A stretch of 64,000 nt of DNA from Candidatus Gottesmanbacteria bacterium (lineage in GTDB: Bacteria; Patescibacteriota; Microgenomatia; UBA10105; UBA927), in the NCBI GenBank assembly GCA_030679255.1, contig JAUXTO010000013.1:18696-82695 (forward strand). The letters are read 5' to 3'. How positions within the stretch are numbered: position 1 is the stretch's first letter; each line of letters begins with the position of its first letter. Position numbers and translations under genes: made by a program. Below the pieces are notes generated by a model. The model saw only the letters and a list, made by a program, of their open reading frames with translations, was not told where the DNA came from and ran no database searches. Of the stretch, positions 3,604-58,285 are shown one piece after another.

Positions 3604-3826
3604 TTATTCTACCCTATGCGGCCGGATGAGCGAAATGAGAATAAATGTGAGGAAATAGGCCGCTGCGTACCACGTCATCCTCTCTGCGGTAAAAAACGTC
3701 CAAGTCGCGAAAAGTGGTATTGCCAGGACCAGACACCCGAGTCCTACCCACACAAAAAATACTGGGCGGCGGACCAAGAGAAGCACGGCAAATACTATAA
3801 AAAATCCGACATCTTGTGGTTTCATA
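3604..3826 (-). CDS. Small 2-TM membrane protein (about 74 aa), function unknown
   Basis: Starts at the internal Met (MKPQDVGFF..), whose ATG overlaps the stop of the upstream UXS-like gene (ATGA). Two hydrophobic helices. The longer 94-aa ORF version would overlap the upstream gene by 67 nt. Confidence 0.45.
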
Positions 3827-4781
3827 ATGACCGGTAATAGGCAATGGTCTTTGAGAGTCCATCGGTGACGGATACGTTCGGTTCCCACGCGAGAACGGTC
3901 TTTGCCTTAGCAATATCCGGCTGGCGTTCATGCGGATCGTCTGTAGGCAATTCCTTGAATATAATTTCGGATGCAGATTTGATCATTTCTTTTATTTTCA
4001 AAGCCAAATCAACCATCCGATATTCTTCCGGATTACCCAAATTTATCACCTCGCCGTTCGTTTTTTCTCCAAACATTGCCTGCATGATGCCATCAACTAA
4101 ATCTGATACATAGCAAAATGACCGTGTCTGGGTCCCATCACCATAGACGGTCATGTGCTCGCCTTTGATCGCCTGGTTCACGAGATTGGATATCACCCGA
4201 CCATCGTCGGACCGCATCCTTGGCCCATAGGTGTTAAAAATACGGATAATGCGCGCATCGAGTTTGTATTTCCGTTGATAAACCATCGTCATCATTTCCC
4301 CGAACCGCTTTGACTCATCATAACATGCTCTGATCCCTACAGGATTCACGTTACCCCAATAGGTTTCCTTCTGTGGATGCTCTTTGGGATCCCCATACAC
4401 TTCCGACGTCGAAGCAAATAGAAATTTCGCACCGGTTTCCTGAGCGACTTCCAAGAGATTTCTCGTGCCAATCGAATTGACGAGCGCAGTTTCTTCAGGA
4501 TATTTTTGGTAATCCACGACCGAGGCAGGTGAAGCGAGATGAAAAATATAAGAAACGTTATTTAATTGTTTTATGGTTTCACGGTTCAATGGTTCTGAAA
4601 CATCATGATCGAGGAAAATAAACTGTGAATTGTCAAATGCATCAGAAAGATTTTCTTTTCTCCCAGTAACTAAATTGTCCACGCAGATGACGCTGTACCC
4701 GGCTCCAAGCAGCTTATCGCAAAGGTGCGAACCGATAAACCCCGCTCCTCCCGTCACCAAGCACGTTTTCTCATCGTTCAT
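3822..4781 (-). CDS. UDP-glucuronate decarboxylase family SDR (UXS / ArnA C-domain-like)
   Basis: LVTGGAGFIGSHL, ..ACYDESKRFGE.., DDGRVISN. 319 aa. Paralog at 32796-33914. Confidence 0.8.
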   Translation of the reverse strand: MNDEKTCLVTGGAGFIGSHLCDKLLGAGYSVICVDNLVTGRKENLSDAFDNSQFIFLDHDVSEPLNRETIKQLNNVSYIFHLASPASVVDYQKYPEETALVNSIGTRNLLEVAQETGAKFLFASTSEVYGDPKEHPQKETYWGNVNPVGIRACYDESKRFGEMMTMVYQRKYKLDARIIRIFNTYGPRMRSDDGRVISNLVNQAIKGEHMTVYGDGTQTRSFCYVSDLVDGIMQAMFGEKTNGEVINLGNPEEYRMVDLALKIKEMIKSASEIIFKELPTDDPHERQPDIAKAKTVLAWEPNVSVTDGLSKTIAYYRSL

Positions 4782-4793
4782 ACTACCATTGTA

Positions 4794-5969
4794 CTACTTC
4801 TTCCATTCACCGGCGAGCCACGACACTGCGGCAATCACGTCATGGATATCTTTCTCCCGCAAATTAGCTCCGAGCGGTAACGACACTGTTCTCTCGCCGA
4901 TAAACTCCGCATGAGGAAACATGTTTTTTTTGAAACCAAAGGTCTTACGGTAGTACTCATGGAGATGGACAGGACTGAAATGAACCCCGCTTCCGATGTT
5001 CATTTTGATCAGTTGATCGACAAAATCATCCCGGGATATCCGTAATTTCTCGAGTCGCAAGAGTATTGCAAATAAATGCCGTGCATGTTTTGTGTTGGGT
5101 GATTCGGCGGCCGGAAGCATGAGTTCCGGTACGCTTGTGAACGCATGCATATACGTTTCCCAATGTTGTTTTCTGATGACCCAATTTTTTTCCACACGGG
5201 CGAGTTGATGGATGCCGATTGATGAGGCAATATCCGTCAAATTGTATTTATATCCTGGAGTAACCGCTTCATAATGCCGGTAGTACCGCACGCTGTACCG
5301 CTTATATGCATCCTGCGATAAACCGTGGAGACTCATAATCCGCATGGACTCGGCAAATTTTTTACTATTTGTCGTTACCATCCCTCCTTCGCCGGTTGCA
5401 ATATTTTTCGTCACATAAAAAGAAAATACGGTGATATCGCCGATCGACCCAATCTTTTTCCGCTTATAGACTGCCTCTGCGGCATGGGCCGCATCCTCAA
5501 CGACAAAAAGCTTATGGCGGCGGGCAATACTCATGATTGCATCCATATCGCAAGGCCGCCCGTGCAGATGGACTGGCAAAATGACTTTTGTCTTGGAAGT
5601 AATCTTTTTTTCAATTTCCTTGGGATCAATATTCCATGTCTCCCGGTCCACATCGGCAAACACTGGGGTGGCGCCACAGTGGAGTATCACGTTGGCTGTA
5701 GACACAAAGGTGAGGGGAGTTGTGATGACTTCGTCGCCCTTCCCCACGCCTAATGCAATGAGGGCGAGATGCAGTCCCGCCGTTGCCGAATTGACACCGA
5801 GCGCGTATTTGGCTTTCGCGTAGTGTGCAAAGGCCGTTTCAAACTCTTCCGTCTTGGGCCCCGTCCCCCACCAACCCGATTTGAGGGTATCCACGACTTC
5901 GGCAATTTCCTCATGGCCGATGTAGGGCTTACCGAAAACCAAAAATGATTTTCTCTGCGGTTTCTTCAT
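4794..5969 (-). CDS. DegT/DnrJ/EryC1 family PLP-dependent sugar aminotransferase
   Basis: ..KSGWWGTGPKTEEFE.., NSATAGLHLAL, the DAAHA box, and FSFYVTKNIATGEGG with the catalytic Lys present. Confidence 0.85.
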   Translation of the reverse strand: MKKPQRKSFLVFGKPYIGHEEIAEVVDTLKSGWWGTGPKTEEFETAFAHYAKAKYALGVNSATAGLHLALIALGVGKGDEVITTPLTFVSTANVILHCGATPVFADVDRETWNIDPKEIEKKITSKTKVILPVHLHGRPCDMDAIMSIARRHKLFVVEDAAHAAEAVYKRKKIGSIGDITVFSFYVTKNIATGEGGMVTTNSKKFAESMRIMSLHGLSQDAYKRYSVRYYRHYEAVTPGYKYNLTDIASSIGIHQLARVEKNWVIRKQHWETYMHAFTSVPELMLPAAESPNTKHARHLFAILLRLEKLRISRDDFVDQLIKMNIGSGVHFSPVHLHEYYRKTFGFKKNMFPHAEFIGERTVSLPLGANLREKDIHDVIAAVSWLAGEWKK

Positions 5970-6018: not shown

Positions 6019-6561
6019 TTACGACTTAAATCTTCGTATCACCCTCGCCGGTACCCCTCCCACAAGAGTTTTTGGCGGTACATCCCGGGTCACGACTGCC
6101 CCGGCTCCCACTGCAGCCCCATCGCCTATCGTGAGTCCGGGGAGTATCACGACCCGCGCCCCAACGAAACATCCCCGTTTTAATCTCACTGGTTTGGCTA
6201 TGGAAGGAATCGACGCTTGCAGTGGATGATCTTTATACCCCACGTTTGTATGAGTAAGGATCATGACATCAAGCGACAGTGTCACATCGTCTTCCAGGGT
6301 TATCCTCTCCGCTAAATCCAAGGTTACCTCGTCTCCCAAAAAACAATTATCGCCCATTGAGATCCCACTGATCCCAGTCCTATACAGATTAACGAGACGG
6401 ATCCGTTCTATGACGGTATTTTGTCCAATCTGTGCGCCAAAGAGCCGCAAAATCCACACGCGCATCGGGGAGACAACCATCATGGCAAACAGATACTGCC
6501 AGAGGCTAAATAATCCATAACGGATAGCTTTTTCAATCCCGATTTCTTTGAATGCCATCAT
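6019..6561 (-). CDS. WcaF-like hexapeptide acetyltransferase
   Basis: Short N-terminus with [14 protein letters not shown] (WcaF-type motif). C-terminal LbH repeats ..[41 protein letters not shown]. Confidence 0.75.
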
Positions 6562-6565: not shown

Positions 6566-7297
6566 TTACGGTAACAAATATCCTTGTTTAACCAATTGTT
6601 TATGAAATCCCAAGAGGTTCTTTATGTATTCATATGTATCATGGACGAGCCGGACCGACGATTTTTTATCAAAACGGCGGATAAAGAGGACTGGCGCCTC
6701 ACGTATGACGAGTCCTGCGTAGTAGGCATACGTCATAATTTCAGTGTCCCAAAACCAACCATTATGCTTCGTCTTATTGAGAATAGGTAGTATCTTTTTC
6801 CGGTTAAAAAATTTATAGCCGGTCTCCGTATCCTGGAGAGGTATTCCCAACACCGATCGCACGAGCCAGGAATACCCACGGGATAGTATTGACCGATGAA
6901 TAGATGATAACCCTTCACGATACACCCGAAGCCCGGTGACGACATCAGCTTCCCCATCCAGAATCATACGGACAAATGACGGGATATATACCGACGAAAC
7001 TTCAAGATCAATATCGATAAACCCAACAACACCCCCGCGCGCAATGGCAATTCCATCCCGCACCGTTTTTCCCCTCCCTTGATTGACCGGGTGATAGAGT
7101 GCCCGGAAATTTTTGTTCTTTTTGACGAGTGACGCAATGATCTCCCTCGTCCCATCAGTACTTTTATCATCCACAAATATAAGTTCATAGGAAAACACAC
7201 TATCATCCAGCTCCGACGTTATACGGGTAACACTCTCCCGCAGAAGATTTTCTTCGTTATAGCAGGCGATGATGAGAGATAGATCAATATACTTCAT
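6566..7297 (-). CDS. GT2 polyprenol-phosphate glycosyltransferase (DPM1/GtrB/ArnC-like)
   Basis: [26 protein letters not shown].. GT-A motifs; 243 aa. Its first ~15 codons recur as decayed remnants at 8745-8775, 11845-11895, 13321-13374 and 13665-13715. Confidence 0.8.
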
Positions 7298-7300: not shown

Positions 7301-7999
7301 TTAAAGAAAATGCATCGTCTTTTTGATTAAACTCTCAAGTTCTCCTATTAGCTTTGCCTTGGCCCAATCTTTTTGTGACTCGGTCAGAACCTCTCCTAGT
7401 CCAACGAGTATTTTCTTTGAGTCCCGGTTCGATACAAATTCCAAAAGTGATTTATAGAAATCTTTCGGCTGCTTACCAGTTCGATGTCTGATGATGTCAT
7501 AATTGATGTCTGTCGCATATGATGAACTTAAAAAATAGTGAATATCAAACAAATCCCTGTTTGCGATACTTTTTCTTTCCATGGAAGCTACCAGCTTGTG
7601 AGCAATCATATCCCGTATATGCATGGTCTTGACGGTTACACCATAAAACGGTAGTAAGCCGTAATGGTTATATGGATTATCCCTGGTCGATATTTCTACC
7701 TTTATGTGCGCCAAACCCAGGCCATAACTTACTACCCAAAACAGAGTATTAAATTTTGTACTATAGTCCTTGATATCGTATTTAGCAGATAATAATTGCG
7801 TCATCTGATCTCCTACCCCATCACTCTGAGACAGGAGATCAAAATCCAAATCTACGGAAAACCGAGGTAACTTATAAAAAAGCATCGCCGCTGTACCGCC
7901 TTTAAAGCCCAAAATAGGGCTCAGTGTGCTATTTTTGTAAATATCGAGCAAAATATTGGTCAGGTGTGTCTTGTGTTTGGTAATATCAAGCGCTTTCAT
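7301..7999 (-). CDS. AbiEii/AbiGii-family nucleotidyltransferase toxin (type IV toxin-antitoxin)
   Basis: GFKGGTAAMLFYKLPRFSVDLDFD motif. ATGA overlap with the upstream AbiEi gene. Confidence 0.8.
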   Translation of the reverse strand: MKALDITKHKTHLTNILLDIYKNSTLSPILGFKGGTAAMLFYKLPRFSVDLDFDLLSQSDGVGDQMTQLLSAKYDIKDYSTKFNTLFWVVSYGLGLAHIKVEISTRDNPYNHYGLLPFYGVTVKTMHIRDMIAHKLVASMERKSIANRDLFDIHYFLSSSYATDINYDIIRHRTGKQPKDFYKSLLEFVSNRDSKKILVGLGEVLTESQKDWAKAKLIGELESLIKKTMHFL

Positions 8000-8571
8000 A
8001 CGATGGTATATTTATTGATAAATCCTGCAATAACCGTATTGTTTCCGTACACATCGGTATTCAAATTCCTCATCAGCTCCCAATGAATATCACGCAAATT
8101 GTCAAAAAATGCATCTCCATCCAAATATAATGTATCGCACAGAGCCCGTTCCGGTGTAGCCTTATGGACACCGTCTACAAATATTGTTCCGATATGGTTG
8201 AGCAAAATATCATCTTTGATTTTTCGATAGATATATTTTTGACCATCAACTTCATATATTTCCGATCTCTGGGATACGGCGTATATGTCCGAATAGGGCT
8301 GAAATATGATTCCTACTTCCTGCAATACGGTGTAGAGGCTTATATAGGAAGGAGTTCTAAACTTATTGGCAAACTCTATCCTGGAATAATCGTTGGAAAA
8401 TGCATAAATACCCCGCGTAATTCTTTTTACATCCTTCTTTTTGGTCGCATATTTCAGAGCAGAATACAATTTGGCGCCACTATATCCTGCAACTTGTTGC
8501 GACAAATCAGAAACCAAATAAACAGTTTGACGGGAATTTTTACCTATGGATAACGCTTTTATATACCCCAT
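7996..8571 (-). CDS. AbiEi-family antitoxin / transcriptional autoregulator
   Basis: About 190 aa, immediately upstream of and translationally coupled to the AbiEii toxin. Family assignment rests on architecture plus sequence character. Confidence 0.65.
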   Translation of the reverse strand: MGYIKALSIGKNSRQTVYLVSDLSQQVAGYSGAKLYSALKYATKKKDVKRITRGIYAFSNDYSRIEFANKFRTPSYISLYTVLQEVGIIFQPYSDIYAVSQRSEIYEVDGQKYIYRKIKDDILLNHIGTIFVDGVHKATPERALCDTLYLDGDAFFDNLRDIHWELMRNLNTDVYGNNTVIAGFINKYTIV

Positions 8572-8619
8572 ATCACCCCGAAGTGTAAATTATTTCCATT
8601 TCCATGTCAAGAGAATCGA

Positions 8620-8740
8620 TTTAAAATAAAGACTCAGTGGGCTTTATATGATCAAGTGTTAGCTTACTATACAAAAATGTACAGTATCCTTACATTGATC
8701 ACAAGGAGATCTTTAAACACAGTAGCTTTTCCTCGTTTAA
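8620..8740. promoter_or_regulatory. Conserved ~100-bp element, copy 1, upstream of AbiEi #1. It contains the inverted repeat TGATCAAGTGT..N33..ACATTGATCA and is a candidate AbiEi operator/promoter.
   Basis: Near-identical copies occur at 10180-10290 and 13560-13660. Confidence 0.5.
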
Positions 8741-8781
8741 CAGGCGATCACGAGGGAAAGAACTGGTTAATTCATATTCTG

Positions 8782-9567
8782 CTATTTCGCCAATTCTCCA
8801 AAAAAATCCAACCTATCTGCCTGCTTTTCATCAAAGAGAAACGGCCGGAGTTTAATTTTATACCGCGAAAGCGATGAATATTCCAAGTCAAATTTCTTCC
8901 GTGCTCTATCCATTATATCAACCGGTATATGATTTGTTTTGGCAAAAGTTAGGTCTGGTTTGATCCCACGGGATAGAAGCCAAACGAGATCATATAAATC
9001 GCGAGGTTGGGTTTCCCCTCTTCCTACATACGCTGCTAACTTTTCTACCATCATCTGCTCAAGCGATTTGGTGACAACTGTGGCCAAAAAGCCATAACGA
9101 TTCACGAAAACCGTTTCCCGTATTTGTCCCCGCCAAGAGTATTCAATGTCCAGTTTAATCATCAATTTTTCATCTTTATTAGGACTCAGCTGAAGCTGAG
9201 TGAGTAATCCCGGAAAACGCAATTCGAAATAGCTTCTCTTTATCGTCTTATTTCGATGGAGTTCTACAGTAATATCCTCCTGCTGTAGCCTCTGGAGTAC
9301 GATATTCACGAGTAGGTGTACTTGAGGGGAAGGTATTCCGACCGCATCAAAATCCAAATCCTCGGAAAAGCGGTCAAGTCCGCGTAATATTCGGAGTGCT
9401 GTTCCACCGACAAAAAAAAGGTTTTGAGAAATTTTCTCCTGATAGAGAAACGAGAGAATTTTCGTCTGCAAATACTCCCGCAGAATTGCGCGTCGTTTCT
9501 CCGGGGGCAATCCATACGTCCGGGCAAAACTCAGGATTTCAGTAAAATTGACAATGGCATTATTCAT
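8782..9567 (-). CDS. AbiEii-family nucleotidyltransferase toxin, copy 2
   Basis: FFVGGTALRILRGLDRFSEDLDFD motif. Start taken at the internal Met (MNNAIV..), which gives an ATGA overlap with AbiEi #2. Confidence 0.75.
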   Translation of the reverse strand: MNNAIVNFTEILSFARTYGLPPEKRRAILREYLQTKILSFLYQEKISQNLFFVGGTALRILRGLDRFSEDLDFDAVGIPSPQVHLLVNIVLQRLQQEDITVELHRNKTIKRSYFELRFPGLLTQLQLSPNKDEKLMIKLDIEYSWRGQIRETVFVNRYGFLATVVTKSLEQMMVEKLAAYVGRGETQPRDLYDLVWLLSRGIKPDLTFAKTNHIPVDIMDRARKKFDLEYSSLSRYKIKLRPFLFDEKQADRLDFFGELAK

Positions 9568-10118
9568 GACAGTTTTATTTCCTGTATCCACTTCGGAAAA
9601 TGAACGGCATATTCACGGTATCGTTTCCAGTCCCAATCGTTAAGCTGTAAGCGCATTTCCGGTGAAATGCTCCGTATCCGTCGTAAATAAAAGTAATCCA
9701 AAAGCGCCTTTTCTTTGTACGCTATGGCAAACGGCGTTTGAGAGAAACCAAAAAAAAGTGCACGATCAACTTTGAAATAATGATATACCCCAAACCCCGT
9801 TTCAATTTTTTTCGTAGTAACCGGCGTGACACAACTGACCGCCATGGGAATATCCGGGATAATCCCGTAGTAATTGAGTGCTGTTTCCAAACTGACGTAG
9901 GATGGGAAATAGAGTTGTTCGGCCAACGCAAGTTCGTCAATGGTACTTTTGTCAAAACAATATAATCCCCGCTTAAGCTGAGAAATAAACCCCTTTTTTA
10001 CGAAACGGTAGAGCTGGGTCCTGATCGTCGAAGATTGCTCCGCTGGGAAAAGCTTCGCCACATCTAAAATCCGGAAATAATTTCCCTCAATTTGTTTCCT
10101 TAGATCTAAATACCTCAT
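9564..10118 (-). CDS. AbiEi-family antitoxin, copy 2
   Basis: 184 aa, upstream of and coupled to AbiEii #2. Same architecture as copies 1 and 3. Confidence 0.6.
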   Translation of the reverse strand: MRYLDLRKQIEGNYFRILDVAKLFPAEQSSTIRTQLYRFVKKGFISQLKRGLYCFDKSTIDELALAEQLYFPSYVSLETALNYYGIIPDIPMAVSCVTPVTTKKIETGFGVYHYFKVDRALFFGFSQTPFAIAYKEKALLDYFYLRRIRSISPEMRLQLNDWDWKRYREYAVHFPKWIQEIKLS

Positions 10119-10179
10119 TAACAGATAATATACAAAAATGTCTATTATTTGTCAACAACTAAATAGCACCATTTAGTAA

Positions 10180-10290
10180 CAAAATAATTGAGACTCGGTC
10201 ATCCTTATCTGATCAAATGTTACATTACTATACAAAAATGTACAGTATCCTTACATTGATCACAAGGAGATCTTTAAACACAGCACCATG
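10180..10290. promoter_or_regulatory. Conserved ~100-bp element, copy 2, upstream of AbiEi #2
   Basis: ..atgttacattactatacaaaaatgtacagtatccttacattgatcacaaggagatctttaaacaca is almost identical to 8660-8740. Confidence 0.5.
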
Positions 10291-10378
10291 GAATATGCCC
10301 ATCTTCTTCTAGGACATTTACATCAAATCTTTTTGGCATAAAATCGGACGGCCTCCTTACTTTTTTTGAGACGAATCC

Positions 10379-11098
10379 TCAACTGTTTCGCTCGATCTCC
10401 CTTTCTAAAGCATTACGGAAGTCCCGGATCATCAAAATCTGGCTCTTTGGAAGAAACAGTGACAGCTCTCTGTCAAAACTCAATGTAGTCTTAGATAGTA
10501 ATTGCTTCACTTTATATAACTGTTTTTTTTGGTCAGGTGTAAGTAAATTCGCCCGTAATAAAAAATATATGTCATAAAAATCACGAGCCTTCTGACGGTC
10601 AAATAATGCATGAAACTTACCTTCAATTAAATTGAAGGTAGATAAACTTTTTACGGGATAGAGAGAAACAAAATCATTTTCAACAGTAAATATCTCACCA
10701 GGTACAACATCTTTTCGAAACGATATTTCTAAGTGAATAGTAATAGGCTGACCAATATTTTTAAATAGTACAATACAAAGATAACCACCGCTAGTGGTTT
10801 TACTCTCTTTGATGTCTACCTCAATTCCTTCACGTGAGACATCGATGAGCGTCTCCTGCAAAATGTTTTCCCATATGCCACTGGTATGCACAGTAGTGTC
10901 AAAATCTAAATCCTCAGAAAAACGGGGGCTTCTATAGAGTAGTCGAAGTGCAGTTCCTCCTTTAAAATATAAATCTTTTGCTTCCGGTTTTTGGAAAAGA
11001 TAACTTAAGAGCACATGTTGTCCATATTCCCGATTTATATTTATATCCGGAGTTTGATATTTGATAGCAAGTTTTTGTAAATATGATGAACTAAGCAT
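10379..11098 (-). CDS. AbiEii-family nucleotidyltransferase toxin, copy 3 (more divergent)
   Basis: YFKGGTALRLLYRSPRFSEDLDFD motif. Confidence 0.75.
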   Translation of the reverse strand: MLSSSYLQKLAIKYQTPDININREYGQHVLLSYLFQKPEAKDLYFKGGTALRLLYRSPRFSEDLDFDTTVHTSGIWENILQETLIDVSREGIEVDIKESKTTSGGYLCIVLFKNIGQPITIHLEISFRKDVVPGEIFTVENDFVSLYPVKSLSTFNLIEGKFHALFDRQKARDFYDIYFLLRANLLTPDQKKQLYKVKQLLSKTTLSFDRELSLFLPKSQILMIRDFRNALEREIERNS

Positions 11099-11100
11099 AG

Positions 11101-11697
11101 TTATTTATCAAACACCTTGGCTACTAAAGCATTTAGAGATTTACTGGCGAAAAGCTTTGTATATATTTTTACCTTGTTTACATCAACAGTTGATAGGTCA
11201 AGGCGCTCTGACAGTGCTCTTCTCCCGAGTGAAACCGCATAGAGATAATCGACAATAGCTTTTTCCGGATCTGCAATAAAAAATCTTTTATGATCTGCTA
11301 CTTTCATTTCATATCCTGTATATGCACGAAGTTTAATAGTGGTATAGCGAAAACTTTTTGAATCAACCATATATTCCCGGGTAGGCTTCGTGGTAGCTGA
11401 AGTTATGGTGTAGACCATATCAGGTAAAATATTGTAATAAGCAAGTGCAAATTCAAATGATAGATATGAAGGGCGGTAAAGTTGATTAGCGATTTCCAAC
11501 TCAGAAGGTGGGTCAGTTTTCAGATAATACATCCCCCGTTTAGCCTGGATAAATAATCCATTCTCAGTACCTTTTTGGAGATAATACAGTGTTTGTCTGT
11601 TCGATAAAGAAAGCAATACGCCAAACTCCCGCGCTGAAAATATTGGGAGATGCTTGGCTAACAATGTATCTCTTATGCCTAAAAATGATGTTTTCAT
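11101..11697 (-). CDS. AbiEi-family antitoxin, copy 3
   Basis: 198 aa, immediately upstream of AbiEii #3, with a 2-nt gap. Confidence 0.6.
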   Translation of the reverse strand: MKTSFLGIRDTLLAKHLPIFSAREFGVLLSLSNRQTLYYLQKGTENGLFIQAKRGMYYLKTDPPSELEIANQLYRPSYLSFEFALAYYNILPDMVYTITSATTKPTREYMVDSKSFRYTTIKLRAYTGYEMKVADHKRFFIADPEKAIVDYLYAVSLGRRALSERLDLSTVDVNKVKIYTKLFASKSLNALVAKVFDK

Positions 11698-11931
11698 TTC
11701 ATTTATTACTTAAATATAGGTAATTACTGAAATGAGTATATCCCACTAGATAGATTTTGTCAACTATATCCATGCCTTGACAAAAAAACCAGACAGGCAC
11801 GCTTTTTTCGTTTCATAGTCCTATGAAGTCGTTTGCCCGTAGAAACTTTTCTTCATTGTGGGCAGGCGATGATGTGAGGGAGATCCGATTTCTTGAATAA
11901 ATTCGATGTCATCTAAAACTTGACTCACCGT

Positions 11932-13242: not shown

Positions 13243-13273
13243 TATTCATTAATCCTGTATTATAGTATCAATT

Positions 13274-13363
13274 CTACACACGATTGTCAATAATCCCAAC
13301 GTTCTCCCCCAGAAGCTTTTCTTCGTTATAGCAGGCGATGAGAGAGAGGTCAACGTGCTTCAT
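13274..13363 (-). pseudogene. Remnant of the GT2 (6566-7297) N-terminus
   Basis: Minus-strand translation MKHVDLSLIACYNEEKLLGENVGIIDNRV*, versus the intact gene [19 protein letters not shown]. Nucleotides 13321-13374 align to 7251-7304. Confidence 0.7.
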
Positions 13364-13376
13364 TCGTTAAATCTTT

Positions 13377-51047: not shown

Positions 51048-51758
51048 TTAAACAAATCTTTGATAGATAAGCGTGCCGAGAGCAATTATCCCATCCCTCC
51101 AGGTCAATTTTTTCCCTTCGGAAAACTTACGGCCAAAATAGGAAATCGGCACTTCATATATCTGATGGCCGGACTTGAGCACTTTAGCGGTAAATTCCGG
51201 CTCAAAGTCAAACCGTCGGGCGTGGATGAATATCCCGTCCAGGACCGTACGTCGAAACACTTTATATCCCGTTTCCATGTCCGTAATATTCGTATTGTAA
51301 AGGATGTTGGTCACCCATGTCACAAACTTATTGCCAAGCGCATAGAGATACATGGTCGAAAGATGCGCGCCTAAAAACCGTGATCCGTAGACGACCGTCA
51401 CCCGTGCATTGGTAAATGGCTCAAGGAGCGTAGGGTAATCTGCAGGACTATATTCTAAATCCGCATCCTGAAGGAGGATTAACTGCCCTGTCGCCTGTTT
51501 TATGCCTTCGACAATTGCAGCTCCTTTCCCCTGATTTTCTGGTTGAACGAGAAGCGTAATTTTCTTTTTCCATGGGGCAAGGATTCCCCCCGTTTTATCT
51601 GTCGAACCGTCATCTACGACAATGACCTGCTTTTTCCAACCCGCCAGACGGACGGCAAAAACGCGTTTAAGCACTTCCTCAATGGATGCTTCTTCGTTAT
51701 AGACCGGAATGATGATAGTTAATTGCTGCATGAAAATAATACTATCACGCCAGAGCAC
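51048..51758 (-). CDS. GT2 polyprenol-phosphate glycosyltransferase (DPM1-like)
   Basis: LTIIIPVYNEE, VVDDGSTDKT, LLQDADLEY. Confidence 0.8.
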   Translation of the reverse strand: MLWRDSIIFMQQLTIIIPVYNEEASIEEVLKRVFAVRLAGWKKQVIVVDDGSTDKTGGILAPWKKKITLLVQPENQGKGAAIVEGIKQATGQLILLQDADLEYSPADYPTLLEPFTNARVTVVYGSRFLGAHLSTMYLYALGNKFVTWVTNILYNTNITDMETGYKVFRRTVLDGIFIHARRFDFEPEFTAKVLKSGHQIYEVPISYFGRKFSEGKKLTWRDGIIALGTLIYQRFV

Positions 51759-52875
51759 TCTTATAAGACTCTATCGTTTCGCGGGCCACGCGCTCCCAGG
51801 AAAACTGTTGTCCCCATACGCTCTGCTTATGAATGCTATCTTTGCGATCTCGAACAGGCATCGTAAGCGCATCCATAAGTCCGCGGGCAATATCATCGGG
51901 ATCATTGGGCTCTACCACCATTGCCGGACCCGCAATTTCGATGAGGCTCCCGCCGCCTGTTGTCACGACCACAGTCCCACAGGACATCGCTTCCAATACC
52001 GGCAATCCGAATCCTTCATAAAACGAGGGTTGGATATAGACTGATGCAAGATTATATAGAGCAACTAAATCTTCCAACACTACGCCTCCCACCCTTACGA
52101 TATCATCATCAAGTTTATGAGCTGCGATATAGGCATTGATCTCATTCGCTTCAACGGATTCATGAACAAACCCTTTCCCCACAAGCACTAACTTGAGTTT
52201 TTTCAGAAGGTTGTCATTCCCGCGAAGGCGGGAATCCAGTATTTGAGATTTGATAATTTTAAATGCTTTTAACATTCCAAAAATATTTTTATTCCAGTTA
52301 ATGTCCCCTACGTACAATACAAATTTTTCCGGAAGATCATAGTTTTTCCTGACTTTTTTCAATACTTCTTTATCCGAAATCTGCCTAAACGCTGGTGCGG
52401 CTGCCAATCGGATGACGTCGATCGATTGCGGCGAAATGCCAGCCAAACGTATAATATCCCGCTTTGATGATTCAGAATCCGTAATAATGCGCGTAGTCCG
52501 ACCCAGGCTCCACCGTTGCACTTGCCACTTGAGTCTACCCCGAATCCCTGCCGGAAAATGCTCCGGAAATACAAGCGGGATGAGATCGTGCACGGTGACA
52601 ACTATGGGAAGAGTATGAAAAACCGGCAGGGCAATAAAAAACGGATCGAAATACGGATAATGGACAATATCGACATTTTTGGGTACCTTTTGTCCCCGAG
52701 TAAAAAAATGATACGAATGGTTGCCCTCATACTTCTGTAGCGCTTCAATTAATAACTTTGTGTACCTCCCCACTCCCCGGTCCTTATGTCCGGTCTCAAG
52801 AGGGGTGGTATCGATAGCGATTCTCATACGTATACGTAAGTATAGTGGAAGAAAGAAGCCAAAACAAACACCCAA
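51745..52875 (-). CDS. Glycosyltransferase family 4 carrying an in-frame 27-bp palindromic insertion
   Basis: ..PSFYEGFGLPVLEAMSCGTVVVTTGGGSLIEIAG.. The interdomain linker contains ..QILDSRLRGNDNLL.., encoded by the repeat at 52213-52239. The likely start is Met at 52827 (MRIAIDTT). Confidence 0.8.
   Translation of the reverse strand: MGVCFGFFLPLYLRIRMRIAIDTTPLETGHKDRGVGRYTKLLIEALQKYEGNHSYHFFTRGQKVPKNVDIVHYPYFDPFFIALPVFHTLPIVVTVHDLIPLVFPEHFPAGIRGRLKWQVQRWSLGRTTRIITDSESSKRDIIRLAGISPQSIDVIRLAAAPAFRQISDKEVLKKVRKNYDLPEKFVLYVGDINWNKNIFGMLKAFKIIKSQILDSRLRGNDNLLKKLKLVLVGKGFVHESVEANEINAYIAAHKLDDDIVRVGGVVLEDLVALYNLASVYIQPSFYEGFGLPVLEAMSCGTVVVTTGGGSLIEIAGPAMVVEPNDPDDIARGLMDALTMPVRDRKDSIHKQSVWGQQFSWERVARETIESYKSALA
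52213..52239. repeat. Second copy of the 27-bp palindromic element GTCATTCCCGCGAAGGCGGGAATCCAG, inserted in-frame in the GT4 coding sequence
   Basis: Identical to 60-86. Encodes LDSRLRGND on the minus strand. Confidence 0.8.
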
Positions 52876-54397
52876 ACGATACTAAATCAACAACAATGCG
52901 GAGGGGAGTTTCAGAAAAATATGTCGTAATCATATGAGTACCGGAGCTAAAAGTGGTACTAATCATCCCCTTCTCATCCGGCGTAGCGTTTGCATCTTTT
53001 CCATCGACGAGCACGCGCCAACCGGGATAATACGCGACATGCGTACGCAGAACTCCTCCTGACGAGGAAACGACCTCTCCGGTAAACGTCGTCACTCCTT
53101 CCTCCTTCATCGTGACCAATCCAACGCCCGAAATTATTTCCATGCGCGCTTCGGGTCGATCCCTCTGCCACCCCATCCAGACGGTGGAAAATCCATTGCC
53201 GAGCGACGAGGTGCCGTCCGTAAATTCGCGTCTCGAGAGATAATAATCATCCGGCCGGACATCGTAAAGCACTGGTTTGGTATAAGAATATGAAACGAAC
53301 ACTGCGCATAACACAACACCGACTGAAATCAACGGCCAACGAATCCGGGAAAGCATCGCTGCGGTGAGAAAGGGTGTCGCGACTATCCCCACGGACAATA
53401 GCCGCCAGGGATATTGAATATTTATCAGAAACGGTATATTCTCCCAAATCGGTATACTTATCTCAAGCATGAGAAAAAATGCAACGCAGGCCGCGACAAT
53501 AAAAACGGACGCATATCTTTCCCTTCGCCAAAGCAAAATCGGCGAAATGAGGAGGATGAGCATCGGGGCAAACCCGACTTGATAGGACATTTCATCCAGT
53601 GCGTATCCGGATCCCGATAGCCCGGTCCCCCAGGAAGGGATAAGAATCTGAACCAATTGCGGAAAATGATCTCTAACGTTGACGGTATTGAGTCCCGTGA
53701 CGTATCCCCGCTCTGCGATGGCGGGTACCCAAAAATATGAAGTGAGGACAATTCCCACGATCATCCATCGCAGCATGGATCTGTCCGTCATCCATGCATA
53801 GATGAAAAGAACGGGCAGAAATATCATGGCCATGATGTTGTGGCTTACAATTATTCCGGCGACCATAAACGCGAGAAGTTTCTTTTTCCCATACGCTATA
53901 CCGGCAAGAGCCGAAAATACAAATCCAAGGGCAAGCACCTCCCCCACTGATCCCCGCACAAATATATCCACAAACCAATAGGGAACAAACGCGCCCATGA
54001 CGCTTCCGAGTACTGCTGGCAAAATTCCATATAACCGTTTCAACCAAACATAGGAAGCGGCAATTGCCAAGATATATCCCGCTGCCATAGTCAGTCGGAA
54101 CGAATCCGCAAGACTCCAGCCCAGAAGATGAAAAAACGAGCCGATATAATTCGGCAAGGGGTAGAAAAAGGAAAATAGTGGAACTCCATATCCGCTATTG
54201 AGTCCGGGTGCCCAGCGCGGAAAAAGATGACCGGAGGCGATCATGCGGCCGAATTCGTAGAATCGGATCAAATGATACTCTCCGTCATGGGTCGGTAAAA
54301 ACCCGGGCACAAAAAGCCAACGCACGGCTATCACACTGACAATGATGACTACAAGAAATCCCATCTTCGCAATAAATAGATTCCTCCTATAATTCAT
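52796..54397 (-). CDS. Polytopic membrane protein, family B (N-terminal HDGxxHxxR..RWxPxxNxGYGxPxFxFYPLPxY motif; C-terminal YxPGWxVxVDG beta-rich domain plus TM). Putative GT-C-like glycosyltransferase, possibly PTPS-related membrane-protein family.
   Basis: THDGEYHLIRFYEFGRMIASGHLFPRWAPGLNSGYGVPLFSFFYPLPNY. Paralogs at 59636-61366 and 61341-62987. Confidence 0.5.
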   Translation of the reverse strand: MNYRRNLFIAKMGFLVVIIVSVIAVRWLFVPGFLPTHDGEYHLIRFYEFGRMIASGHLFPRWAPGLNSGYGVPLFSFFYPLPNYIGSFFHLLGWSLADSFRLTMAAGYILAIAASYVWLKRLYGILPAVLGSVMGAFVPYWFVDIFVRGSVGEVLALGFVFSALAGIAYGKKKLLAFMVAGIIVSHNIMAMIFLPVLFIYAWMTDRSMLRWMIVGIVLTSYFWVPAIAERGYVTGLNTVNVRDHFPQLVQILIPSWGTGLSGSGYALDEMSYQVGFAPMLILLISPILLWRRERYASVFIVAACVAFFLMLEISIPIWENIPFLINIQYPWRLLSVGIVATPFLTAAMLSRIRWPLISVGVVLCAVFVSYSYTKPVLYDVRPDDYYLSRREFTDGTSSLGNGFSTVWMGWQRDRPEARMEIISGVGLVTMKEEGVTTFTGEVVSSSGGVLRTHVAYYPGWRVLVDGKDANATPDEKGMISTTFSSGTHMITTYFSETPLRIVVDLVSFGCLFWLLSSTILTYTYENRYRYHPS

Positions 54398-55997
54398 AGA
54401 CGCTCACTGATTCATCTCTATACACCACCCGCGCCAGAGTATCCATGGTGTCATTATCCAAAGTATATTGAAAATCTTTTCTCTCTTTTGGTATCACGAC
54501 ATAGCGTATAGAGTGTTTCTTCATTTCCGCAATAGTATTTTGATTGAAACTGGTTAGCCACGTATCGATTTGTTTCCTCCTGCTCCAATAATCATACCCC
54601 ATGACGGAAACATAATATTCATGTCCGAGATAGTTCTTACGACCCGTAAGCACGACGGGATCATACAGCGCGGGCTCTGCGATAAAAACACTGCCTGAAT
54701 CAGTCTTCGTGGTAATCCATTGCATAAACCTATTCTTCGGCGCATCATCAATTATTAATTGATAATCATTTTTCACAACCATGAGATTAAATAACCCTGA
54801 AGTGATCGATAGAAAAACAGTGCTCACCGTAAGAATCCTCCAAGCGATACCACGCTTCTGCCACCACGACACGATAAGATGTGCGATAAAAGGAAGTGAA
54901 AGGGCTGTCGCAAAATTTATAAGTGAATGGTTATGTTCTATCCGGTAGCTTATCTGCACCGTATTGGCAATGAGGAATAGGAGACCGGCACCGATCAACA
55001 ACCGCCTTCCTGCCTCGCTAGTCAAACGATATGCACATGGGATAAGAATGACAAAAATGCCAAGATTATATATCCAAAACATAATCCAGGAAGCCCACGA
55101 TAGCGGTTGAGGCGCGAGATACCCGGGATTCCACAGCTGGCCTAACGAAGTCGCGGATCTCATAGAAATAATTTGTATTAGATGTGGTATGGCAACCAAA
55201 AAAGCAGTGCCCACGAGTAATATCAACGCTTTATTTCTTTTTCCCAACAGGAGTGCCATCACCATGATTCCCGTCGACGCAGCGACCACAACATGAACTC
55301 TTGTGGCTGCGCCAAGCAGGAGTCCCACGATAATCCATCGGCTATCCGGTATCCGTTTATTGCCATCTGACCACCCGACGATCATCCAAATCACCCAAAC
55401 TGCTATCGCCATACCGGCTATAAGGTGCCGCTGATTGAGATATGGGGCAAGCGTCGAATATATCGTAATAACCGATCCGTCAAACGGCCCTTTGTGGATA
55501 TAATCGGGGAATCGCCAAAAATAAGAAAAAAATGAAAAATTTTTAGGTGCCTCCCTCAGAATGTCAATAAACGAAAGGTTGCCCGGTAAAACAAAGAGCA
55601 CAATGGACAATAAACCTACCACTTTTTTACCATTTGAAAATAGTATTGCCAACCGATAAAGTCCATAGAGAAGTATTGTAAGCGCAAGCGCGCTTATCCC
55701 GTTGAGCGCGAAATCTATACGTATCCCGATCCTCACCAACAGTCCCGCCAGCCAATCTACCGCGTAGTGATACACGAGTGGACGCCCTGGAAAAAATGGT
55801 GACTCAGGTCCCCTGTTTTGCCCACTAGCAAATGACCGGATGAGGCTTATGTGAAGACCAAAGTCACCGACCTCATGCCGTGCAATGCGGAATTGGGACG
55901 TACCGGCATCGTACCCAAAACTTTTGGCCATAAGCCACCAGGAAAAGAGCAAAAGAACAACTATAAGGATGGCATCACCGATGACGCGTTTTACCAT
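54387..55997 (-). CDS. Polytopic membrane protein (536 aa) with a C-terminal soluble domain; putative GT-C-like glycosyltransferase
   Basis: About 12 TM helices. Acidic/His loop RHEVGDFGLHISL near the N-terminus. C-terminal roughly 130 aa is hydrophilic. Confidence 0.45.
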   Translation of the reverse strand: MVKRVIGDAILIVVLLLFSWWLMAKSFGYDAGTSQFRIARHEVGDFGLHISLIRSFASGQNRGPESPFFPGRPLVYHYAVDWLAGLLVRIGIRIDFALNGISALALTILLYGLYRLAILFSNGKKVVGLLSIVLFVLPGNLSFIDILREAPKNFSFFSYFWRFPDYIHKGPFDGSVITIYSTLAPYLNQRHLIAGMAIAVWVIWMIVGWSDGNKRIPDSRWIIVGLLLGAATRVHVVVAASTGIMVMALLLGKRNKALILLVGTAFLVAIPHLIQIISMRSATSLGQLWNPGYLAPQPLSWASWIMFWIYNLGIFVILIPCAYRLTSEAGRRLLIGAGLLFLIANTVQISYRIEHNHSLINFATALSLPFIAHLIVSWWQKRGIAWRILTVSTVFLSITSGLFNLMVVKNDYQLIIDDAPKNRFMQWITTKTDSGSVFIAEPALYDPVVLTGRKNYLGHEYYVSVMGYDYWSRRKQIDTWLTSFNQNTIAEMKKHSIRYVVIPKERKDFQYTLDNDTMDTLARVVYRDESVSVYEL

Positions 55998-57138
55998 AGA
56001 AGAGCGCGCTTATAGCGGGCGGCACGAATGTCACAATTTTTTTAACTAATGGCGTCATCCCGCTCCATGAGCGGGTATAAAAAAACGGAACTATCCGCAA
56101 CATGAGACCAAATGAAAATCCGTAAGACACCGCGTGGAGTAGCGTGGGTTTATCTACAAGCGCGAGAAACGTGAGTGGCCAGATGAAATACCATGCATAG
56201 ATTTCCTCACGGATTGGCGACAAAAAGAAAATCACATACATAGCGACACTCGCCCAATACCATACCTGCTGCCACAGAACATCTGGACTTATGCGAGATT
56301 CCCGGAATTGGGGCTTCTTTAATTCCGGGAATCGACTCCTACGCATAAGTCCAAATAAACACCAAATAAACACTGGGGCCAAAAATATTGTTGCTCCCTT
56401 GATGAGTATTGAAGCTACAAAAAGAAGTAGACCAAGAACATATCTTTTTTTCTTGAGCAAAAAAAAACCTCCGAGCGCCAGAGCCATCATGACGACATCA
56501 TTATGGCCATCGACAAGTGTCGAGAGCATGACCAGCGGATTGAGGGCAAAAAATGCCAAAGCCCAGGGCTTTCTTTCCGAGGCAATCCAAATGAGATAAC
56601 AAAGGACCAAATACCATACGGTTATAAAAATTTTGAAGGTAAATAACGTGAATAAGAGATTACCGGCCCCTAAAAAATGCGGAATAGCCGTGAGCGCTAT
56701 CCAGACGGGACCGTAGAGCGCCACTTTATTCGCTGCATGGAGAAAACTAAAACTCGGCTCGTTGGGCAAATCTATGGGCATAACAATGTACGGGTTTTCC
56801 CGGTAAAGAAAAGTAACTTTTGCCGTCGCAATATAATTGAAAATATCGTTTGAGAGGGCAGGATACGACCATACCAGAATGGCAATACTGCCGGCGATCA
56901 ACAGCCAAATATGTTTTGACGTCAATGATCCTTTTTTTATACGGTATAACACCCAAAAATACCATCCAAAAAGCGCGGTGACGGTAGACGTATACCAAAT
57001 GACCGGATACAGTGTTTGAAAATAAATAACGGGTTGAAGCGAAGCAATTTTGGGTAATAATGCGTTTGCGTCCACAAATCCCCATGACGGTATCGTCAAA
57101 AAAATAAGCGTTATATAGTAGAATATAGTAGCAACCAT
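55975..57138 (-). CDS. Polytopic membrane protein, GT87/DUF2029-like (polyprenol-phosphate-sugar-dependent glycosyltransferase-like)
   Basis: ..LSNDIFNYIATAKV..ENPYIVMP..YGPVWIAL..NPLVMLSTLVDGHNDVVMMALALGG.. resembles the DUF2029 conserved blocks. Tentative. Confidence 0.45.
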   Translation of the reverse strand: MVATIFYYITLIFLTIPSWGFVDANALLPKIASLQPVIYFQTLYPVIWYTSTVTALFGWYFWVLYRIKKGSLTSKHIWLLIAGSIAILVWSYPALSNDIFNYIATAKVTFLYRENPYIVMPIDLPNEPSFSFLHAANKVALYGPVWIALTAIPHFLGAGNLLFTLFTFKIFITVWYLVLCYLIWIASERKPWALAFFALNPLVMLSTLVDGHNDVVMMALALGGFFLLKKKRYVLGLLLFVASILIKGATIFLAPVFIWCLFGLMRRSRFPELKKPQFRESRISPDVLWQQVWYWASVAMYVIFFLSPIREEIYAWYFIWPLTFLALVDKPTLLHAVSYGFSFGLMLRIVPFFYTRSWSGMTPLVKKIVTFVPPAISALFYGKTRHR

Positions 57139-57151
57139 AACACACCATGTA

Positions 57152-58285
57152 TTAATTCAATTTTTTACGGAGACGAACGTACCACCCACACAAAACATCT
57201 GCTGCAAATATATATGCAAACGGCAGTATCGGTAATAAATATCGCGCAGAGGATTGATTTAATGAAATCATGATAAAGTAGGCAATCGTCCACAAATACA
57301 CTATTTGCTGAGCAAGAGATAAACGAAAAAATGAACGAGTGTGATTCAAAATCCAAATCCATGTCAGACCAAAAAGAACGGGCCAGCTGAAATGCCAATT
57401 CGCGTCGCGAATCACTGGCTGGTCGCCCCACCATACATGCCAACGATTAAAGAAAATTAAATCCCACACCGTAAAAAAACGATTTAATTTACTCACATTG
57501 TAGATATAACTCCACTTTTGAATCCCTAAGACACTCCACGGCGTATACCCACGATAATATATTGGAATATACGAAACAATTGCGACAACAGCGATCGATA
57601 GGTAACCGAAAATGAGCCACCCAATGAGATTTCTCTTATGAAACATAATATATGCAGTATAAATAGCCAGGAGCGGTAGAGAAATCGAAAATATTTTTGT
57701 CATCATTGCTGCTCCAAGCAATACCATGGAGATGAATATCAAAAATCCGCTTTTTTCAAGTCCTTTGATAAAAAAATAGACGGACCATATCTGAAACGTC
57801 ATCATAGGAATGTCCAACAGTGGCATAAATTTAAATTGACTCGTAATTAAAGGCTGAAATAAGATGATTATAATAAGTATCAATACGATGGGCGTCGAAG
57901 AAATAATTTCTTTTCCCAAAAAATATATACCGGTTAAAAAGAATATAAATACTACTATCATGATGATATTCGGATTATCAAATAATACGATCGACAATGA
58001 AAATAGTTGCTTCCCCAACGGTGGCGTGCCAGGATTGACATCCAATAAGCTTTCCCCCTTGAGATAGGCTCCTGCTGCATATGCATAAAGCGTCTCATCG
58101 GGAATGGATGCGGTCGGATGTATACTAATATATTGTGAATTAAGATAAGCATTTTTATATGCTTCATATCCGGCCCAATACGAACCTTGAAAATACGAAC
58201 GCGACTCATACATCAGAAATCCGAAACGGATAATGATAAATGTGACAAGGAGGATAGTTATCATCCGTGGTTTACGCCTCATCAT
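57152..58285 (-). CDS. PMT_2/ArnT-like GT-C glycosyltransferase (polyprenol-phosphate-sugar-dependent)
   Basis: First extracytoplasmic loop ..SIPDETLYAYAAGAYLKGESL..NPGTPPLGKQLFSL carries a DE motif like ArnT/PMT families. About 10 TM helices. Confidence 0.55.
   Translation of the reverse strand: MMRRKPRMITILLVTFIIIRFGFLMYESRSYFQGSYWAGYEAYKNAYLNSQYISIHPTASIPDETLYAYAAGAYLKGESLLDVNPGTPPLGKQLFSLSIVLFDNPNIIMIVVFIFFLTGIYFLGKEIISSTPIVLILIIIILFQPLITSQFKFMPLLDIPMMTFQIWSVYFFIKGLEKSGFLIFISMVLLGAAMMTKIFSISLPLLAIYTAYIMFHKRNLIGWLIFGYLSIAVVAIVSYIPIYYRGYTPWSVLGIQKWSYIYNVSKLNRFFTVWDLIFFNRWHVWWGDQPVIRDANWHFSWPVLFGLTWIWILNHTRSFFRLSLAQQIVYLWTIAYFIMISLNQSSARYLLPILPFAYIFAADVLCGWYVRLRKKLN

Follow-up and report, generated by a model that had tools for sequence, protein, structure and literature searches.

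A probable mosaic cell-surface glycan island with a putative Arn-like amino-sugar glycosylation system in a Gottesmanbacteria contig

Do genes scattered along a single contig of Candidatus Gottesmanbacteria, a member of the candidate phyla radiation (CPR), add up to a pathway of the Arn type, in which an amino sugar is loaded onto a polyprenol phosphate and transferred outside the membrane? The question was raised by a sequence-only reading of the 64,000-nt stretch analysed here (contig JAUXTO010000013.1; "the window" below, numbered from its first letter), which had proposed a complete 4-amino-4-deoxy-arabinose (Ara4N) route split over separate genes. We found that the Arn-like character of the parts is genuine as regards fold and logic, and that part of their neighbourhood is kept in related CPR genomes. 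The proposed route was supported as Arn-like logic for this conserved subset of genes, but no support was obtained for the chemistry leading from UDP-glucuronic acid (UDP-GlcA) to an aminopentose, the decarboxylases being of UDP-xylose synthase (UXS) type and both UXS and the UDP-glucose 6-dehydrogenase Ugd lying outside the syntenic set. Judged from the predicted proteins and their gene order, the window is most likely, at somewhat better than even chances, a mosaic island of genes for cell-surface glycans that includes a multi-component system of Arn-like kind for glycosylation with amino sugars.

Pfam and NCBIfam profile scans were run on all 59 major open reading frames (ORFs) of the window, and the E. 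coli K-12 arn operon proteins served as the direct comparison set (BLAST and phmmer). The ORFs named in the earlier reading are all present, where it had placed them or within a few codons, and the folds assigned to them were borne out. Its proposed profile check of the Arn families gave a mixed answer: an ArnB-like DegT aminotransferase and Formyl_trans_N domains were recovered, while the ArnC cut-off was not reached and the NCBIfam ArnD, ArnT, ArnE and ArnF models matched no window protein (positive controls, E. coli proteins against their own models: ArnD 523 bits, ArnT 806, ArnE 214, ArnF 140). The same four proteins had no significant match among the window proteins in the direct E. coli comparison (E > 0.1 or none). 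The genes on which the argument turns are as follows.

13885-14781, forward strand: CE4 amidohydrolase (PF01522), overlapping FT1 by 11 nt
14771-15586, forward: FT1, stand-alone formyltransferase (PF00551, 54 bits)
46152-49791, reverse: Wzx flippase and the glycosyltransferases (GTs) GT2e and GT4e (Pfam)
47280-47651, reverse: 23S-rRNA-IVS-protein/bAvd-like gene between GT2e and GT4e
57152-58285, reverse: GTC4, 377-aa GT-C with an ArnT/PMT-like membrane core (fold comparison)
4794-5969, reverse: DegT1, ArnB-like pyridoxal-phosphate aminotransferase (PF01041, 426 bits), 12 nt upstream of UXS1
3604-3825, reverse: smTM, membrane protein of 73 aa whose gene overlaps the stop codon of UXS1, about three transmembrane (TM) segments
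20932-30246, reverse: M710, MT2, M1266, sm105 and M822, giant membrane proteins and a small one, of no known family
821-2577, reverse: GT4N, with a GT4 N-domain only (181 aa), overlapping the full-length GT4a by 4 nt

The evidence that carries this reading comes from gene order in relatives. Homologs of CE4 were found in seven distinct loci, six of which (L090-L095) hold an overlapping CE4-FT1 pair, in the order CE4 then FT1 in all six. Four of these loci (L090, L091, L094, L095) share the arrangement Wzx-GT2e-GT4e-(PMT_2 or big membrane protein)-CE4-FT1-(PMT_2 or DegT1-like), with GT2e and GT4e adjoining or overlapping, unlike the interrupted pair in the window. In L090 the DegT1-like gene lies directly 3' of FT1, and PseB-like and GalE-like genes stand beside them in place of a decarboxylase. 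The L092 block reads M822-sm105-M1266-M710-CE4-FT1-GT2-MT-smTM-ArnC-like GT2 (130 bits)-EamA, with GT4N-GT4a-Hex0 farther on and a DegT-family gene at the locus edge, and in L093 smTM is next to an ArnC-like GT2 of 159 bits. Since orthologs of many scattered window genes lie side by side in relatives, these genes represent one conserved neighbourhood; as far as gene order can, this shows that CE4, FT1, GT2e, GT4e, Wzx, a PMT_2-type GT-C, the DegT1-like gene and smTM belong together. We accordingly rejected, on the strength of this synteny, a gene set assembled by pure chance for the CE4/FT1/GT2e/GT-C/smTM subset. Ugd and UXS are not in the conserved CE4-FT1 gene set of the related loci, and a decarboxylase-type short-chain dehydrogenase/reductase (SDR; S[ST]SE[VI]YG plus YxESK) is found near the CE4-FT1 genes at one of the seven loci only, L089. 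Folds and motifs that fit, together with orthologs kept adjacent in related CPR contigs, support a general logic in which a GT2 acting on polyprenol phosphate, an amidohydrolase and a GT-C working outside the membrane would all handle a putative N-acylated amino sugar. The GT4N-GT4a pair followed by a hexapeptide transferase is likewise kept in L005, L092 and L093, and because of this conservation we do not regard GT4N as a broken gene.

The CE4 gene probably starts at 13885 and not at 13747, giving a protein of 298 aa; this protein and FT2 are each 100% identical to an NCBI protein annotated in a Candidatus Gottesmanbacteria metagenome-assembled genome, on a contig of 307 kb. Its equation with the ArnD deformylase was right about the CE4 fold, and the protein is of cytoplasmic type and close in length to ArnD (CE4 fold, cytoplasmic, about 296 aa), but ArnD homology was not found. 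The ArnD model NF011923 gave no match at E<0.01, neither BLAST nor phmmer matched E. coli ArnD, and a Smith-Waterman comparison (z = 2.9, with the HEVGxH motif alone aligned) and hhalign (probability 2.4%) were not significant; by profile, BLAST and hhalign it is a generic CE4 protein. Its best NCBIfam family is TIGR03006 (65 bits), which is also the only secondary match of E. coli ArnD, and its closest structures are de-N-acetylases.

The two stand-alone formyltransferase-fold proteins were confirmed as such, the Asn102-His104-Asp140 triad of the ArnA N-domain (ArnA-N) being conserved in both alignments. The solved relatives of FT1 are Fmt (60 bits) and then ArnA-N (50 bits), and the core region alone aligns with E. 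coli ArnA-N. FT2 lies closer, with ArnA-N as its best PDB match (96 bits, then Fmt 87, a WbkC-like GDP-perosamine formyltransferase 76 and PseJ 42) and 27.9% identity to E. coli ArnA-N over 244 aa. It stands in a second operon.

15622-17019, forward: GT4b, Leloir glycosyltransferase (Pfam GT1/GT4)
16994-18187, forward: DegT2, second ArnB/PseC-like aminotransferase (NCBIfam ArnB 358 bits, PseC 356 bits), overlapping FT2 by 4 nt
18184-18927, forward: FT2, stand-alone formyltransferase nearest the ArnA N-domain (Formyl_trans_N)
19869-20993, reverse: PseB/FnlA-like UDP-N-acetylhexosamine (UDP-HexNAc) 4,6-dehydratase (Polysacc_synt_2 316 bits; FnlA 404, PseB 314)

GT4b overlaps DegT2, and DegT2 overlaps and is translationally coupled to FT2; the triad recurs in L086, L087 and one JGI contig (GT4b orthologs of ~590 bits in L086 and L087). 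Near it, in these three contigs, there is no UXS, Ugd or CE4 gene, which suggests that the Leloir transferase uses a formylated nucleotide sugar directly. A metagenome scan with FT2 returned three weak loci (24-30% identity), and contexts were taken from exact-protein look-ups instead. The PseB/FnlA-like gene, convergent with this operon in the window, may be an alternative source of a 4-keto sugar; for the formyltransferase modules, a 4-amino-4,6-dideoxy-HexNAc made by the PseB-like route appears somewhat more likely than a 4-aminopentose derived from UDP-GlcA.

Transfer to polyprenol phosphate had been assigned to four DPM1/ArnC-like GT2 proteins. Three of them (GT2a, GT2e and GT2f) do resemble DPMS, GtrB or ArnC; the fourth, GT2d (45119-46204), has two C-terminal TM segments, yet no DPM1/ArnC-type sequence signal.

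6566-7297, reverse: GT2a, small GT2 without TM segments (PDB: DPMS 38 bits, GtrB 36, ArnC 33; PgfS 71 bits)
51048-51758, reverse: GT2f, the clearest DPM1/AglJ-type polyprenol-phosphate GT2 (AglJ 117 bits, PpgS 66, Dol-P-hexose transferase 64, ArnC 61)

GT2a bears an IDIDLE motif, the QDADLE motif of GT2f corresponds to LDADLQ of ArnC, and GT2e (47748-48566) is weakly ArnC/PpgS-like. All three are 24-27% identical to E. coli ArnC in the catalytic domain alone and, unlike ArnC with its C-terminal TM helices, have no predicted TM segment. Against the NCBIfam ArnC model NF007986 (cut-off 529) the best window score was the 61 bits of GT2f; ArnC-like GT2s of 130-159 bits occur in L092, L093 and L003, and none in the window.

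For the last step, the PMT_2/ArnT-like GT-C that had been proposed (GTC4) holds in its fold and not in its own profile. The predicted model (pLDDT 92.5) matched GT-C enzymes only in Foldseek, with ArnT as the closest solved fold, and is consistent with an ArnT-like membrane core in a minimal GT-C that lacks the periplasmic domain of ArnT. Homologs at 31-59% identity carry PF13231 (PMT_2), and one Gottesmanbacteria homolog is 83% identical. GTC4 itself has no Pfam or NCBIfam match (including ArnT NF009784), its family profile found nothing among PDB sequences, and hhalign against E. coli ArnT gave a probability of 22%. It belongs to a larger array.

52796-63992, reverse: GT-C-like membrane proteins in an array, together with DUF5667 and GT2g (weak matches to YfhO, PTPS_related and GT87)

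The array members have 4-13 TM segments each, with scores of 38 bits to TIGR03459 and 22 bits to PgfM1/2. The giant proteins M710, M1266 and M822 fall into none of the Pfam or NCBIfam families; each has 10-12 TM segments, a sizeable portion outside the membrane and a TM segment at the C-terminus. M822 and M1266, paralogs of each other, flank the 105-aa membrane protein sm105. When the families of M822/M1266 and of M710, and GTC1-7, were compared by hhalign with the GTC4 family and E. coli ArnT, nothing significant emerged.

The small membrane proteins smTM and sm105 (27450-27767) had been proposed as ArnE/F-like flippase subunits, an assignment that we abandon: neither shows detectable similarity to ArnE, ArnF (NF011625 / NF002816), EamA, SMR or GtrA, and each has about three predicted TM segments, versus the four TM helices of the ArnE/ArnF type. 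With relaxed Pfam thresholds, membrane proteins small and large matched at noise level only (e.g. Lycopene_cyc for smTM, E = 0.02). EamA genes were found in L090 and L092, and none in the window. An independent assembly also has smTM annotated as a gene of 73 aa. Together with its relatives in L005, L092 and L093, with which it shares the motifs MKPQD, IPLF and FFTAER, it makes up a family that matches none in the databases, and in L092 and L093 smTM adjoins an ArnC-like GT2; by its gene neighbours, it is associated with putative lipid-sugar synthases.

The supply of the sugar is where the Arn analogy is weakest, and the genes concerned are the following.

2611-3597, reverse: GalE-type UDP-hexose/pentose 4-epimerase (TIGR01179 414 bits, cut-off 262)
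3822-4781, reverse: UXS1, UDP-glucuronate decarboxylase of the UDP-xylose synthase clade (human UXS1 339 bits, E 3e-100)
6019-6561, reverse: HexAT, hexapeptide acetyltransferase of WcaF/WbbJ/Maa type (WcaF family 92 bits, NeuD/PglD type 61; PDB LacA and Maa 65 bits)
31435-32826, reverse: Ugd, UDP-glucose 6-dehydrogenase-like (TIGR03026)
32796-33914, reverse: UXS2, divergent UXS-type decarboxylase overlapping Ugd (human UXS1 174 bits; ArnA ~55 bits)

Ugd was assigned correctly to its family (TIGR03026 393 bits, above cut-off; AglM 368 bits, TuaD 350 bits). The two decarboxylases, described as UXS/ArnA-C-like, do have the decarboxylase SDR fold but are not of ArnA type: identities to human UXS1 are 52.6% (UXS1) and 34.8% (UXS2), against about 26% and 24% to ArnA-C, and UXS1 scores 69 bits against ArnA-C. 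The ArnA and RsU4kpxs group models NF005998 and NF008872 gave 88 and 99 bits for UXS1 and 50 and 82 bits for UXS2, below the cut-offs of 777 and 294. Because both lie far nearer human UXS1 than ArnA in score and identity, we group them with the UDP-xylose synthases. UXS1 is similar over its full length to characterised UXS and keeps all catalytic motifs (ASTSEVYGDP and YDESK, i.e. TSE and YxxxK); UXS2 is a weaker case (174 bits) with SSSEIYG and YDESK, a Ser-Arg in place of the ribose-binding Asp of NAD-dependent relatives (after beta2) and a 7-aa insert after GxxGxxG. Both UDP-xylose-forming and 4-keto-releasing enzymes have the catalytic TSE, YxxxK and Arg positions. ArnA, RsU4kpxs and the UXS-family enzymes CalS9 and AtmS9 are reported to release a 4-keto-pentose, the latter two feeding aminotransferases, and structures give no explanation of the choice between 4-keto-pentose and UDP-pentose in these decarboxylases (EvdS6 paper, PMC10338323); UXS-type membership is compatible with either product, UDP-xylose or 4-keto-pentose. 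In L003 (8685-11015), a UXS2-like and a CMT1-like C-methyltransferase sequence share one stop-free frame of 777 codons, which hints at C-methylation of a 4-keto-pentose. Two Anaerolineae loci (L067, 12080-16065; L069, 8179-12029) carry operons of (Ugd), an ArnA-C/UXS-like decarboxylase, a hexapeptide transferase and DegT, and may encode a non-Arn pathway to an N-acylated 4-aminopentose.

The aminotransferase next to UXS1, DegT1, had been taken for ArnB. It is ArnB-like, with 43.7% identity to E. coli ArnB over 382 aa and ArnB structures as the top four matches of a PDB search (304-287 bits, followed by perosamine synthase at 240 and PseC at 162), but it falls below the cut-off of 631 of the NCBIfam ArnB equivalog NF008658 (383 bits; DegT2, 38.1% identical to E. 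coli ArnB, 358 bits), and in a neighbour-joining tree E. coli ArnB branches with L038 apart from DegT1. We compared 80 genomic loci that encode DegT1 relatives. One of them, L038, is a true ArnT-ArnB-ArnC operon; ArnC-like neighbours occur in L003, L012, L014, L031 and L077; the relative adjoins a nucleotidyltransferase and a 4,6-dehydratase-like SDR in L043, L047 and L076; and many other loci have PseB-like neighbours. Only L005 (88% identity) retains the order GT2a-HexAT-DegT1-UXS1-smTM-GalE-GT4N-GT4a-Hex0. Given the tree placement and these mixed contexts, DegT1 is ArnB-like without support for pentose specificity, and we dropped the idea that it is a true ArnB ortholog; for the UXS1-DegT1 pair a pentose product is possible. 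HexAT, considered as an N-acetyl counterpart of ArnA-N, is not likeliest to be one, as it scores higher on O-acetyltransferase families.

The window as a whole is a near-continuous glycan island by Pfam and NCBIfam. It encodes six extended SDRs (GalE, UXS1, the PseB/FnlA-like dehydratase, UXS2, an Fcl-like and a CDP-glucose-dehydratase-like protein), four DegT-family proteins, two formyltransferases, three hexapeptide acyltransferases, a single CE4, a glucose-1-phosphate cytidylyltransferase, Ugd, two TylC3-type C-methyltransferases, about 14 Leloir GT genes (seven GT2 and seven GT1/GT4) and the Wzx flippase, at least seven membrane proteins of GT-C-like type and three giant ones without a family. 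Several genes bearing on the Arn claim were absent from the earlier reading, namely DegT2, the PseB/FnlA-like dehydratase, the CDP-sugar branch, two more DegT-family genes and six more GT-C-like genes. An Arn-like set is easily picked from an island this rich in SDR, DegT, GT and GT-C genes. The island is broken up by three AbiE toxin-antitoxin pairs, two DUF4143 ATPases and one 23S-IVS-protein gene, and its GC content is 34-39% at 10000-16000 and 22000-30000 versus ~43-49% over most other parts of the window, a drop that suggests a mosaic origin.

7301-7999, 8782-9591 and 10379-11098 (region 7301-11697), reverse: three tandem AbiEii toxin genes between two glycan operons
11932-13242, and 49799-50956 on the reverse strand: two AAA_14/DUF4143 ATPase genes inside the island
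33896-34747, 39943-45150, 30230-31438 and 36814-38070, reverse: CDP-hexose branch (profile scans)

A small ORF lies upstream of each AbiEii gene as its partner, and one of these ORFs is weakly AbiEi-like. The CDP-hexose branch comprises the glucose-1-phosphate cytidylyltransferase (TIGR02623, 270 bits), the CDP-4,6-dehydratase-like SDR, an RfbH-like protein, DegT3, the Fcl-like SDR and the two TylC3-type C-methyltransferases.

If the window does hold an Arn-like amino-sugar system within a glycan island, the amino sugar would be made on a nucleotide by a DegT enzyme, whose family is established and whose substrate is presumed, and would be N-formylated by FT1 or FT2, whose catalytic triads are conserved and whose substrate is likewise presumed. 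Two uses may follow: direct incorporation of the formylated sugar by GT4b into a unit exported by Wzx, or loading of the sugar onto polyprenol phosphate by one of the small GT2s that resemble DPMS, GtrB or ArnC. CE4 might trim the N-acyl group, and on the outer side of the membrane a GT-C such as GTC4 might hand the sugar on to a protein, a lipid or a wall polymer. Because CPR bacteria, to our knowledge, lack lipid A, this lipid is not a candidate acceptor. Several points weigh against the scheme. The similarities behind the GT2-to-polyprenol step are weak (33-117 bits), no priming phosphoglycosyl transferase and no GtrA/EamA-type flippase was recognised in the window, aminotransferases outnumber classical 4-keto generators there, and the related contexts examined number about ten, with flanks of 7-10 kb. 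UXS1 and DegT1, moreover, lie 12 nt apart with smTM over the UXS1 stop, an arrangement kept in L005 that looks like a functional UXS1-DegT1 couple. This adjacency speaks for a full split Arn route, in which Ugd would feed UXS1 or UXS2 for a 4-keto-pentose, followed by DegT1 or DegT2, FT1 or FT2, a small GT2, deformylation by CE4, flipping aided by a small membrane protein and placement of a cationic pentose on a surface acceptor by GTC4. The gene overlap of Ugd and UXS2, ArnB structures and the ArnA N-domain as best solved relatives of DegT1 and FT2, the aminotransferase-feeding CalS9 and AtmS9 with a product choice that structure does not reveal (PMC10338323) and the Anaerolineae operons of L067 and L069 would all fit this route. 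It is nonetheless unlikely in our estimate: UXS1 is 52.6% identical to a human enzyme that reduces its intermediate, decarboxylase-type SDRs are missing at six of the seven CE4-FT1 loci and at the FT2-triad loci, and the DegT1 clade is not pentose-specific, given its nucleotidyltransferase, 4,6-dehydratase-like and PseB-like neighbours. Its genes also lie in at least five transcription units with toxin-antitoxin modules between them, the curated models are unmatched (ArnC far below cut-off; ArnD, ArnT, ArnE and ArnF none), and HexAT beside DegT1 resembles an O-acetyltransferase.

The constant CE4-then-FT1 order in all six loci with the pair could instead reflect an N-acyl swap, in which CE4 would strip the N-acetyl group from a nucleotide- or polyprenol-linked HexNAc and FT1 would formylate the freed amine, so that the glycan exported by Wzx would contain an N-formyl hexosamine, while UXS and Ugd merely supply xylose, arabinose and GlcA. 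Most pair loci (L091, L093, L094, L095) have no adjoining DegT gene, the closest CE4 structures are de-N-acetylases and Wzx-GT2e-GT4e heads the cassette, all of which fit this reading; with a DegT1-like gene directly after FT1 in L090, a DegT-family gene at the L092 edge and no characterised enzyme pair of this kind identified, we rate it as quite improbable. Least probable of all, and to our minds very unlikely, is that the genes have no functional link and are unrelated branches of one polysaccharide locus, all modified sugars being used by cytoplasmic Leloir transferases on a Wzx-exported unit and the GT-C proteins acting elsewhere, for instance in hexose decoration from polyprenyl-phosphate hexose. 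The many alternative partners for each step (six SDRs, four DegT-family genes and ~14 GTs), the Leloir GT within the FT2 triad itself and the greater similarity of GT2f to Dol-P-hexose transferases fit such a view, against which stands the repeated position of CE4-FT1 beside PMT_2-type GT-C, small GT2s, smTM and ArnC-like GT2 in independent CPR contigs. We also hold it doubtful that all of the bolder elements are true together, i.e. that a CPR bacterium lacking lipid A runs an Arn-type route from non-Arn parts (UXS-family 4-keto-pentose, ArnB-like amination, N-formylation, polyprenol phosphate, CE4 deformylation and a minimal ArnT-fold GT-C, ending on a wall polymer or surface protein) with a new 73-aa membrane family partnering the lipid-sugar synthase.

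The envelopes of CPR/Patescibacteria are almost uncharacterised, and it is probably through their surfaces that these bacteria attach to hosts. A formyltransferase, a CE4 protein, small lipid-sugar synthases, a GT-C and family-less giant membrane proteins, linked in a conserved cassette, suggest a testable route to N-acylated or cationic amino-sugar surface decoration. Should the sugar prove to be a 4-aminopentose, the reach of Arn-type chemistry would no longer end at lipid A and polymyxin resistance; should it prove otherwise, the locus keeps its use as a map of glycan genes in CPR, though one of an ordinary kind. Literature searches brought up no account of Arn-like systems from CPR and nothing usable on PDB 8VR2/3/6, 4-acetamido-4-deoxy sugars or Gottesmanbacteria glycosyltransferases.

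Compared with known systems, the window shares with Arn (PmrHFIJKLM; L-Ara4N on lipid A) an ArnB-like aminotransferase, triad-bearing ArnA-N-like formyltransferases, a CE4 amidohydrolase, a GT2 with an ArnC-like DADL motif, a GT-C with ArnT as closest solved fold, and Ugd in the locus. Arn also occurs with a split ArnA, in Burkholderia, where the formyltransferase and the dehydrogenase have a gene each (compare PbgP3, 3slg). The window differs from Arn in decarboxylases that are UXS-type and not ArnA-C-type, in the unmet ArnC cut-off and unmatched ArnD, ArnT, ArnE and ArnF models, in small GT2s without C-terminal TM helices, a GTC4 without the periplasmic domain, scattered genes and an organism that, as generally understood, has no lipid A. 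With Pse/bacillosamine-type UDP-4-amino-4,6-dideoxy-HexNAc pathways it has in common a PseB/FnlA-like dehydratase convergent on DegT2-FT2 and a DegT2 whose PseC score is about its ArnB score; FT2 is nearer ArnA-N (96 bits) than PseJ (6ci2, 42 bits), however, and no Pse synthase genes were seen in the window. The mycobacterial PpgS-Rv3632-Rv3779 system is a comparable multi-component one. In the CalS9/AtmS9 natural-product branches (PMC10338323) a gene for a UXS-family, non-ArnA UDP-GlcA decarboxylase likewise stands beside a DegT aminotransferase gene, but there Leloir GTs attach the sugar to secondary metabolites, whereas the window context is envelope glycan assembly. In monoderm bacteria, multi-component transmembrane glycosylation combines a GT2 of GtrB/CsbB type with a GT-C, for example YfhO, and a small flippase of the GtrA/GtcA kind (PMC8035078). 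Of such a set, the window appears to have the GT2 and GT-C components, with smTM, not of the GtrA family, next to an ArnC-like GT2 in L092 and L093; the small GT2s are of the DPMS/GtrB/PpgS kind with small membrane proteins beside them, the acceptors are other than lipid A, and the many GT-C proteins include weak YfhO, PTPS_related and GT87 matches. The window system departs from this pattern in its small membrane proteins outside the GtrA family, its giant uncharacterised membrane proteins and its tie to a formyltransferase-CE4 pair and aminotransferases. The island is thus a variant of known multi-component transmembrane glycosylation systems (PMC8035078) and of Arn.

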